From Candidatus Eiseniibacteriota bacterium (GTDB lineage: Bacteria > Eisenbacteria > RBG-16-71-46), in the NCBI GenBank assembly GCA_044222065.1, contig JBGAOA010000060.1:1-26509 (forward strand): a stretch of DNA of 26,509 nt, written 5' to 3'. The position numbers were made by a program. Positions 15,001 to 18,000 of this stretch are shown here, piece after piece (position 1 is the stretch's first letter; each line of letters opens with the position of its first letter).

Positions 15001-18000
15001 CGGACGCGAGTTCTCGATCTCTTCGACCAACGGCGTCCGCTACTACCTGAACCTGCTCGAGAAGGCCGGCCACCTGAAGCGCAAGGGCAAGATCTCGCGC
15101 GGCATCGAAGGCGTGGGTGGCGGAGTCGCAACCGCGAAGCGCGGCATCCCGATCCTCGGCCGCGTCGCTGCCGGCCAGCCGATCCTCGCCGAAGAGTCGC
15201 TCGACGGCGCGCTCGAAATGGAAGAAGTCTTCGGCGACACCGGTTCGTTGTTCGCCTTGCGCGTCCGCGGCGACAGCATGATCGAGGCAGGCATCCACGA
15301 AGGCGACTACGTGATCGTGCGGCAGCAGGAGCGTGCGGAAGCGGGAGCGATGGTGGTCGCGCTCATCGAAGACGAAGCGACGGTGAAGTACTACCGGCCG
15401 CGCCGCGATCGAATCGAGCTCCATCCCGCCAACGCCAGATACCAGCCGATCGTGGTGGAACCTTCCTCAGCCTTCCGCATTCTCGGGACGGTGCGAGGAG
15501 TGATTCGAACCCTGACGCGCTAGCTCGTCGTCCAATAGGTCGGGCTTTGATCACCGGGACTCGTTCCCGGTTTTCAAAGGCCGCGAGTTGCACAAACGTT
15601 CAACCGTCCCCGCAGGAGGTTCGCCGTGGAAGACCATTTGGCTCCCGAAGTGAAAGAAGCGCTCAACGGTCGTTGGGAGCCCGTCTACCGCAGCCAGCTC
15701 CACTACCTCGTCACGTGGAGCACGCGCGGACGCCGGCCCGTGCTGCGGCAGAAGCACATGAACACGCTGCACGCGCTGATCGAGCGCTGCTGCGAAGAGC
15801 GTGGCTTCTCGCTGCTCGAGGTCGCCTCGGGCTCGGATCACGTTCACGTGCTGCTCGCGCTCAGCCCTACGCAGAGCGTCGCGAGCGTCGTGCGCGAGCT
15901 GAAGGGCCGGACGGGGATGTCGCTCATGCAGGACCACCCCGAGCTTCGCGTCTGGCTGCGCGGCAATCTCGTGTGGGACGAGCGCTACGCGGTCGAAACC
16001 GTGAGCGCGATGCGGCTCGAACACGTCCGCCATCGGCTCCAGGCGATTCACGGCCCCGCGGAGGACTTCGCGATCGCGAGCTGAGTGCGCGAGCGGACCG
16101 TGTCCGAGCGGCGTGCACGCGGCTCGGGCGCGGCCCGGCCTGCGGACGACGGCCTGTGCAACGCGGCGAGGCAGCGCGGATCGAGCGGCCGCCGCCGGCG
16201 ATCCCGCGGTGAAGAGCGGCCGCGGGGACGCATCGCCTGGGTCTTCGAGCCGAGCCTACGGGTGTTGCGAGTCGCGTGAGGCGAGCATCGCCGCGGTGAG
16301 GACCAGCGCCGCTCCGACCCACTGGAGCGATCGCAATCCCTCGCCGAGGAACAGCGCCGCCGACAGCACGGCGACGACCGGCTCGAGCGTGGCGAGGATC
16401 CCCGCGTGCGAAGCCGCGAGCCGGCGAAGCCCCGCGTTGAACAAGATGAACGGAAGCAGCGTCGACAGCATGCCGAGCGCGAAGAACATGCCCCACAGCT
16501 TCGCGTCGTAGCCGGCGGCGAGGATCTTCCAAGGTGGTGTGACGATCGCCCACACGATGAACGCTATCGTGAAGGAATAGGCGAGCACGGTCTCGGGCGG
16601 GTACTTCGCGAGGCCGCGCTTGGACAGCAGGATGTAGGTCGCGAACCAGATCGCGGAGCTGAAGCCGACGACCCAGTGGAGCGGCCGCGCCTGGAGCGCG
16701 ATCGGATCCACGTTTCCGACGAGCAGCGCCGTGCCGCCGATCGCGCACGCGAGCGCGATCGTCGTGACGGCGCGCACGCGCCGTCCGCGCGCGGCGTCCA
16801 CGAGCACGATCAGGGCGGGGGCGAGGTATTGGATCAGGATCGAGAGCCCGACCCCGAGCTTCGAGATCGAGTAGTAGTAGCTGCCCTGCACCGTCGCGAC
16901 GCCGAGCAGGCCGAGCAGGACGAAGTAGGGAAGGTCGCGCGGCGCGATGAGCAGCTTTCGGGGCGATCGAATCGCGAGCCACGGCAGCAGCACCGCGAGG
17001 GCGAAGAACAGCCGCAGTTCGACGACCGCGAGCGCCGGCACGGCGAAGTCGCGGAACACGAAGCGCGCGAGCGTCGCGGACGTGCCCCAGAGCGTCGCCG
17101 CACCGAAGACGAGCAGGCGGCCCGTCGCATCGTGCCTCGGCGCCGCGTGCGCCGCTCCGTCGTCCGCGCGCGTGTCGCCGCCGGCCGTCGCGCGATCGCT
17201 CACAACAACCGCTTGCGACGCAGCGTGTACGTCCGCTCGATGCCGGCGCGAGAGAGCACGAGCGTCACCTTCGAGCCGGGGGCTCCCTCGAGCGCGTTCG
17301 CGACGTCGAACAGATCCGCCCCCGCACTCGATCGCCCGTCCACCGACACGACGAGATCGCCCGCCCGGATGCCGGCCGCTTCTGCGGGCGAAGGAATCGC
17401 GACCGCGACGACTTCGATCGCGCCCGAGCGGCGCTCGATCTGAAGCCCGACGTGCGAGTACTCGTTCTCACGGTCGTCCCAGTTCGCGGGCTCGGGCTCG
17501 AACCACGCGACGCGATTCGCGAAGTCGAGCGTGATGCGGTGGCGTTTGAGCGCGGAATATCCGAGGAGCCCTGCGATCTCGCGCCCCGACACTTGCGACA
17601 GCAGCCCCCGAAGCGGGCTCTCGAGTTCGACCGCATCCGACGCTCGCACGATCAAGTCACCCGAGGGGGAGAGCAGCCGGATCTCGGGCACGCGGACCGC
17701 GCACGCGCTCTCGGTTCCGAACAGCGTCGGCGCGGAGAGCCCGCACAGCGCGCGCCACGGCGCGCGGCCCTCGAGCGCGGGACGTCCCTCGTCCACGAAC
17801 AGCACCGTCTTGGTCGCACCGGTATCGAGCACGAGCGTCACGACGCGGGCCCGCGCGCCGCCGACGCGCGCCCGCACGAGGATCTTCCCGTCGCCGGCGA
17901 GTTCGAACGGAACGGCATGCGCGTTCCGCTCGATCAGCGCCCTCGTCGCGAGCTTCGATCGGCCGATGCGGTCCACGGGCGACGCGTCGTGTGACCCGGG

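Follow-up and report, generated by a model that had tools for sequence, protein, structure and literature searches.

The gene that follows lexA in this genome encodes a relative of the IS200-type transposases, here called Y1*, which has lost its catalytic tyrosine and is likely to be a so far undescribed helper in the response to DNA damage. The window, which is the whole stretch of DNA analysed (a contig of 26,509 nucleotides from a Candidatus Eiseniibacteriota bacterium), carries its start 102 nt behind the end of lexA at position 15523 (Table 1). We hold with high confidence that Y1* was domesticated and came under SOS control. The whole account, in which Y1* would be a domesticated, SOS-induced, non-catalytic binder of hairpin or fork DNA, is drawn from sequence comparison and is tentative; with the mechanism included, we give it slightly less than an even chance.

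Table 1. Features of the lexA-Y1* locus (positions in the window).
Feature	Position	Strand	Basis or remark
lexA promoter TTGACG-17-TATGGT	14834..14862	+	only promoter-like site in 14750-16300; shuffles expect 0.1
LexA-type box 1, perfect palindrome TGCAC-N4-GTGCA, between lexA -35 and -10	14842..14855	.	22.7 bits
Conserved lexA leader element, GTGCCR then 5-bp hairpin GGTYC/GRACC	14871..14893	+	at predicted +1; candidate Y1* target (inferred)
lexA, 201 aa	14918..15523	+	TIGR00498 181.6 bits (cut-off 111); PF01726, PF00717
Terminator-like hairpin and T-tract, ends 15 nt before box 2	15554..15574	+	sequence; stem of GGGAG/CTCCC type in 58/75 loci
LexA-type box 2, TGCAC-AAAC-GTTCA, one mismatch from palindrome	15589..15602	.	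matrix and pattern search
Ribosome-binding site AGGAGG	15614..15619	+	sequence; AG-rich columns there in 75 loci
Y1*, tyrosine-less IS200-type Y1/HUH-fold protein, 152 aa, annotated tnpA	15626..16084	+	PF01797, NF033573, AlphaFold2, structural match
H72-V-H74 (HUH motif), intact only in home family f1	15839..15847	+	homologue alignment
Arg137 codon, site of catalytic Tyr	16034..16036	+	alignment to ISDra2 TnpA; homologue columns
His142, one residue past the place of the TnpA metal-binding Gln (Y+5)	16049..16051	+	120/120 home-family homologues

Y1* matches PF01797 with 84 bits and the IS200/IS605 transposase profile NF033573 with 85 bits (cut-off 55). The closest structure to its AlphaFold2 model (pLDDT 86) is ISDra2 TnpA 2xma, with Z 18.3 and an rmsd of 2.0 over 113 residues at 27% identity. 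By sequence alignment, Arg137 of Y1* falls on Tyr132 of ISDra2 TnpA (2xm3, 2xma), on Phe132 of the mutant 2xo6 and on Tyr127 of IS608 TnpA. Ile141, mostly Leu in the homologues, occupies the place of the metal-binding Gln (Y+4); the roles of the catalytic Tyr and this Gln in Y1 transposases are described in the accessible part of PMC6006769. We measured conservation on 120 sequences, the window protein and its 119 best homologues, in which R137, H74 and H142 are invariant and H72 is present in 119. Only two of the 120 have a Tyr beyond residue 127, at an unconserved position of the tail. Arg stands in the catalytic-Tyr column of 75 of 77 parsed loci, whereas 101 Y1 proteins outside the Y1* clade have Tyr (82%) and Gln (71%) at the same columns. 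The sequence alignment and the invariant R137 bear out the Arg-for-Tyr exchange proposed in the initial annotation. Since Y1 chemistry proceeds through a phosphotyrosine intermediate, a protein without this Tyr would not transpose.

The same annotation held that the HUH motif is kept and counted H-x-H in 99 homologues. We could not reproduce this count, finding the motif in 119 of 120 sequences, and the claim stands for the home family but not for the two sister families, f2 and f3, in which the motif is degenerate (Q-I-R or R-V-H in f2, R-L-D or H-V-N in f3). At the His142 column, seven of eight f2 rows have Asp or Glu. The f3 proteins stop just past W117, without strand beta5 and without the Tyr helix (helix D), so the canonical TnpA dimer would be impossible in f3. 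A single-sequence model of one f3 protein reached a pLDDT of 55 and was left out of the structural comparison; as query in an Atlas search, an f3 protein found only Y1_Tnp or unnamed clusters. A profile search of 1.84 billion representatives returned clade members first, then mostly Tyr-bearing TnpA.

The residues kept in f1 could mean residual chemistry, with H72, H74 and H142 forming a metal site and Arg137 holding a phosphate for water-driven hydrolysis of DNA or protein-DNA adducts. The conservation of these four residues (99-100% in 120 close homologues) and the position of H142, one residue from the place of the Gln, speak for this, but f2 lost all of them except the Arg and f3 lost helix D, yet selection persists in both, and R-V-H variants are present within f1 too. 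We therefore consider such chemistry improbable. For a non-catalytic binder, the reading that we prefer, H72, H74 and the invariant H142 of f1 are more than passive binding requires, and this counts against it.

Within one Eisenbacteria order, 93 of the 101 genomes other than this one have Y1* (f1 80/88, f2 10/10, f3 3/3). These tallies include the unpublished genome G010, without which f2 is 9/9; G010 is also counted in the outside-order tallies, in the counts of other Y1 genes and in those of polY and of DUF6504 in genus g31 given below. The match is single in 90 of the 94 positive genomes. Among the eight genomes without Y1*, seven have no lexA, and in the eighth a contig end truncates lexA; Y1* thus accompanies every intact lexA locus that was seen. 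The lexA-Y1* locus is present three times in one genome, with two of the copies broken, and in another Y1* is frameshifted and its LexA-type box is lost as well. Among the best 80 of 86 loci of a genome collection, which overlaps the order's 101-genome set, lexA lies upstream of Y1* in all 80. Outside the order, 4 of 104 genomes match Y1* weakly, and the one inspected has an ordinary Tyr-bearing TnpA. No Y1* was found at the lexA loci of other orders (0/30, the best 30 matches from 76 genomes, with 1.5 kb flanks).

The descent of Y1* follows that of its neighbour. In a tree, 13 Y1* rows fall on one side of a 99/100 branch that separates them from 24 TnpA rows. Y1* distances track LexA distances over 43 loci (Spearman 0.84; 0.54 within f1; 0/999 permutations). 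The median dN/dS of Y1* is similar to that of lexA in f1 (0.28 vs 0.33) and f2 (0.49 vs 0.45) and is 0.44 vs 0.23 in f3, all values being rough because of GC bias. One clade, distances that follow LexA and purifying selection together indicate that Y1* arose once and has since been passed on vertically as a host gene. This agrees with its earlier description as a domesticated single-copy gene fixed behind lexA; Y1* is the only PF01797 match in the whole genome (assembly 94% complete).

The opposite reading is that of an active or recently inactivated insertion sequence merely beside lexA. Y1* does score above the NCBIfam IS200 cut-off, and LexA-controlled HUH transposases exist in ISCR elements, according to the accessible part of PMC13393415. 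An ordinary element is nevertheless contradicted by the missing Tyr, the single copy fixed at the same site in three families, the vertical descent and the purifying selection. In addition, no tnpB domain (PF07282) was found in the 94%-complete genome, and the Y1* flanks have no repeated copies elsewhere in it. We find this reading hardly credible.

Box 1 ranks third in the genome and is a perfect palindrome in 78 of 80 lexA loci (best 80 of 86); its pattern resembles the Fibrobacter LexA box. Box 2 lies 37 nt upstream of the Y1* start and is modest when taken alone, with 12.0 bits and rank 15 of 28 among the genome sites above 9 bits. With an operator matrix built on 41 sites upstream of lexA in other genomes, and 200 shuffles for each spacer, the site in the lexA-Y1* spacer beats 200/200 shuffles in 45 of 47 rows (two duplicates) and 199/200 in one; it is absent from the remaining row, the genome with the frameshifted Y1*. 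With a relaxed pattern, a box precedes Y1* in 79 of 80 loci, and in 68 of 80 it is the asymmetric variant ending GTTCA (best 80 of 86 in both cases). The strict pattern has 7 sites in 4.2 Mb, against 15 expected from half-site counts, and five of the 7 precede lexA, Y1*, DUF6504-polY-DUF72, a second DUF6504 gene and a gene that is presumably mraZ-like by its sequence. The recA gene has a degenerate box only. The SOS box first ascribed to Y1* is thus confirmed by sequence, and membership of Y1* in the SOS regulon is well supported by these comparisons. The conservation of box 2 suggests that Y1* is made after DNA damage.

Between lexA and box 2 the spacer is conserved as well. A T-tract lies at -18 to -14 relative to the Y1* box in 51-71 of 75 loci, and the hairpin ends 14-18 nt upstream of the box. 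A terminator scan did not call the hairpin at 15554-15574, which is followed by only 4 T. The case for an own promoter of Y1* is weak, the second base of the putative -10 being A in only 28 of 75 loci. The T-tract may double as a weak -35, or bound LexA may stall polymerase on the terminator and so gate read-through. RNA libraries of four studies contain contigs identical to the full Y1* open reading frame (one run) or to parts of it (three runs), and one contig bridges lexA and Y1*; these runs were picked for containing the stretch, and the contigs may be DNA. Positions 13500-14839 have no RNA-library cover, which is uninformative.

In the sister families, Y1* sits in front of a Y-family polymerase gene. 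The initial annotation described the order lexA, Y1, a gene for an 84-aa protein and dinB in 7 of 7 loci of these families. We examined 12 of 13 such loci and found lexA-Y1*-DUF6504-polY-DUF72 in 6, one of them with an extra gene between lexA and Y1* (an f3 genome). Five have lexA-Y1*-polY, and one more, cut before lexA, is likewise without DUF6504. These other six loci, in which polY follows Y1* with no DUF6504 gene in between, belong to genus g31, and no DUF6504 gene was found anywhere in the six g31 genomes (completeness 53-98%). Throughout the home family of 88 genomes, Y1* remains next to lexA, whereas the genes of the polymerase are found at another place and have a box of their own; for the window's genome, we saw again the 84-aa gene and dinB/polY on another contig with a box of their own, as first noted. 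polY is present in 98 of 102 genomes of the order. Since polY is unlinked in f1 and g31 is without DUF6504, Y1* would have no fixed partner.

The cassette itself is older than Y1*. Among the 30 best-matching lexA loci from other orders of this class, we found lexA-DUF6504-polY in 5, lexA-DUF6504 in 2 and lexA-polY in 10. As these orders have the cassette without Y1*, our comparison indicates that Y1* was inserted into a pre-existing cassette. The 84-aa protein matches DUF6504 at cut-off level. Its C-terminal Trp is invariant, and such a Trp is described in PMC3765255. DUF6504 is likely ImuB-C; no ImuB came up when longer, fused versions were looked for. A lexA-imuB-C-polY operon has been published for Geobacter (PMC6511836). 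Therefore, of the proposal that Y1 is a new member of an SOS mutagenesis cassette, the part concerning the SOS regulon is well supported, a role of Y1* in mutagenesis would be hypothetical, and the novelty of the cassette does not hold. The cassettes of other orders without Y1* and the unlinking in f1 also count against our preferred reading.

H26, R/K36, V39-L40, S87, R90, E91, K/R93-G94, P105, L107-R108 and W117 are retained throughout the three families, in every row or almost every row, and the median pI of Y1* proteins is 9.6. The kept basic residues presumably form the DNA-binding face of the TnpA fold. Decayed catalytic parts together with a kept basic core point to binding without cutting. 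The dimer residues of IS608 TnpA (P73, V77, I113 and T115, in the accessible part of PMC3479197) map by sequence alignment to P81, V85, V123 and T125 of Y1*; of these, P81 and T125 never vary in f1 or f2. IS608 TnpA also binds four-way junctions as well as forks, is localised at stalled forks and has DnaN as an interaction partner, as stated in the accessible part of PMC5027513.

This DnaN interaction also fits a protein adaptor, whose Y1 fold would bind LexA, PolY, ImuB-C or the clamp and not nucleic acid. The many invariant residues specific to the clade, namely W17, P19, H26, S87 and E91, with W110 and E124 added in f1, speak for it. However, Y1* has no obligatory neighbour, given the unlinked polY of f1, the g31 genomes in which no DUF6504 was found and the gene inserted between lexA and Y1* in one f3 genome. 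An adaptor is thus, in our judgement, a poor candidate. The retained dimer residues would also suit an anti-transposon decoy, a dead subunit which poisons or outcompetes incoming IS200/IS605 transposases when single-stranded DNA is abundant; TnpA subunits do assemble into mixed dimers, and strand transfer by such dimers can be blocked, according to the accessible part of PMC3597680. Against this, other Y1 genes are about equally rare in the order (8/101 genomes) and outside it (12/104), although assemblies often lose insertion sequences, and PADLOC gave no match. We regard a decoy as very improbable.

The non-catalytic binder can be described as follows. The comparative evidence shows that an IS200-type tnpA landed between lexA and imuB-C(DUF6504)-polY in the ancestor of the order, and that the inserted gene then lost its catalytic Tyr and was retained by the host. 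LexA would repress Y1* through its own box just past the lexA terminator. After induction, a Y1* dimer may grip hairpin, branched or fork-junction DNA accumulating at stalled forks, and may shield such structures or mark them for the co-induced polymerase, PolY/ImuB-C/RecA. We infer that Y1* would be an optional helper and not a fixed subunit. Besides the points given above, the loss of beta5 in f3, the weak case for an own promoter and the result that 43 Y1* proteins hold no clamp-binding motif count against this reading.

A different target may lie in the lexA transcript itself. Y1* could be a feedback regulator that adjusts LexA synthesis by binding the leader hairpin of this transcript, either in the RNA or in the DNA of the open promoter. 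The leader element is Y1-substrate-like, being a hairpin with a short 5' motif at its base. Its anchor is found in 61 of 75 home-family loci at a fixed 6-7 nt after the -10, and in an anchored test the hairpin is fully paired in 54 loci, against 14.5 (maximum 25) in shuffles. Seven leaders have the compensatory pair GGTTC/GAACC, and the leader arm is paired in the minimum-energy fold of 65/75. The element was not seen in 15 outgroup lexA leaders, and among the 141 promoter-like sites of this genome only 2 have GTGCC after them. In addition, Y1* stays by lexA where the operon splits, and an altered leader coincides with Y1* E91Q and R120P in one lineage. On the other hand, none of the 9 f2/f3 leaders read contains the strict motif, and 2 contain a partial form, even though Y1* is present in those genomes. 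In stability the hairpin does not exceed shuffles (median z -0.4), and owing to the varying length of the loops RNAalifold obtained no consensus pairs from a MAFFT alignment of 47 leaders. Co-variation of leader and Y1* residues amounts to two independent pairs only (p = 1), the co-change being confined to one lineage. Rfam gave one chance-level match (E 0.32). Shared ancestry or mRNA stability would equally explain the leader conservation. Our data leave the leader hairpin as a candidate Y1* target, and we consider feedback through it unlikely, though less so than the other alternatives. The same doubt applies to its full form, in which a dead Y1 transposase reads structure as an SOS regulator and closes a second feedback loop on LexA by way of an IS-end-like hairpin.

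Our search of the literature, which covered a minority of the subscription papers and texts without their supplementary files, found no description of Y1*. It is known here from one order of uncultured bacteria, by comparing sequences. Within that scope, a tyrosine-less Y1 protein is held order-wide under purifying selection similar to that of lexA, and would be a candidate component added to a minimal SOS regulon. The graded loss of the HUH motif and helix D over the three families forms a natural series of what a host keeps. The case also indicates that "IS200 transposase" annotations can conceal host genes.

Compared with IS200/IS605 TnpA (ISDra2 2xm3/2xma, IS608 2a6m/2vju), Y1* shares the fold, the size, the PF01797 and NF033573 matches, the dimer residues and, in f1, the HUH motif. 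Unlike these proteins, Y1* has Arg for Tyr, no Gln at Y+4 and no tnpB, and in place of mobility it has a single fixed copy, vertical descent and a LexA-type box; its HUH motif is decayed in f2 and f3 and helix D is lost in f3. Y1* is thus a descendant of IS200/IS605 TnpA that falls outside this group by its lack of the Tyr, of the Gln and of mobility. TnpA-REP/RAYT (4er8) is, like Y1*, a host-retained gene of the Y1 family. However, RAYT keeps HUH and Tyr, is a monomer and lies among REP repeats (accessible parts of PMC6006769 and PMC3479197), whereas Y1* is without the Tyr of the Y-x3-NP motif and keeps the IS200-type dimer residues. Y1* reaches 37 bits against the RAYT profile NF047646 (cut-off 80), and no REP-like repeat family was found, the flanks being unique in the genome; genome-wide there are 15 scattered matches to the leader pattern and 11 hairpin sites of the spacer type. 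The sub-cut-off score, the missing Tyr and the lack of REP flanks rule out Y1* as a RAYT. Within what is accessible of the cited papers, the domesticated Y1 proteins, RAYT and relatives, keep their catalytic residues and Y1* does not. The survey in PMC6006769 left out proteins that lack HUH or Y, judging them probably non-functional, and its accessible text has no mention of LexA.

Among SOS systems, the operon lexA-imuB-C-polY of Geobacter sulfurreducens, with its GeoPolY-like polymerase (PMC6511836, PMC3765255), has the same order of lexA, small beta-rich protein and Y-family polymerase; the f2/f3 cassette differs in the inserted Y1*. The accessible text of PMC6511836, PMC12926913 and PMC3765255 has no mention of a transposase. 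The ISCR elements have, like Y1*, an HUH transposase gene under a LexA box, but in the accessible part of PMC13393415 these are genes of mobile elements, whereas Y1* is immobile and without a nucleophile. If Y1* were a structure-reading SOS regulator, it would be the TnpA counterpart of the nuclease-dead TnpB regulators. We know of no guide RNA for Y1*. The TldR proteins are nuclease-dead derivatives of TnpB and, like Y1*, represent an IS200/IS605 gene that a host has retained past the loss of catalysis; they differ in deriving from the element's other protein, the RNA-guided TnpB.

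The genes listed first in the table typically lie near the replication origin, and similar neighbours are found at several home-family loci that carry lexA and Y1*, the gene for the tyrosine-less Y1/HUH-fold protein. At L043, a locus from a related genome, another gene, presumably encoding a glyoxalase-like product, is inserted behind lexA, and Y1* retains its LexA-type box. In the sister-family genus g31 (L032-L034, L037), the spacer between Y1* and the polymerase gene polY holds two adjacent, sequence-conserved hairpins in place of the small DUF6504 gene.

Coordinates of the gene cluster, the inserted gene and two LexA-type boxes of the window's genome (G000)
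Feature	Location	Context	Basis
Bactofilin, parB, parA, rsmG, mnmG, mnmE, R3H/KH cluster	window 18630-26120	adjoins lexA-Y1*	domain/profile matches
121-aa gene	L043:4508-4873	between lexA and Y1*	
Box, 23.4 bits	G000:C51:36346	160 nt upstream of mraZ-like gene	matrix scan
Box, 14.2 bits, one mismatch	G000:C89:14392	ahead of radical-SAM-like gene	

The C51 box is the highest-scoring LexA-type box genome-wide. We take the gene behind it, from its sequence, to be mraZ-like and the first of a cell-division cluster, and it is possible that cell division is placed under SOS control through this operator. The C89 box and its gene sit downstream of a RecQ-like helicase gene; both gene names are our presumption.

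A second DUF6504 gene with a LexA-type box was observed at L165, L169 and L174-L177. In five home-family genomes a divergent polY comes next, sharing 32-34% identity with the first polY, and a PHP/DnaE-like gene is frequently close by. Four of the leaders carry GCCAGGTCC immediately 5' of the start codon.

Other unusual Y1 proteins came from the profile search. P0167 (268 aa), whose Y1 domain lacks both HUH and Tyr and is fused to a sigma-70 region-4-like C-terminus, is possibly a further domesticated dead Y1. In the tandem proteins P0128, P0154 and P0188, domain 1 has Tyr without HUH, whereas domain 2 has HUH and no obvious Tyr; this division suggests a single-chain enzyme that would form one trans active site.
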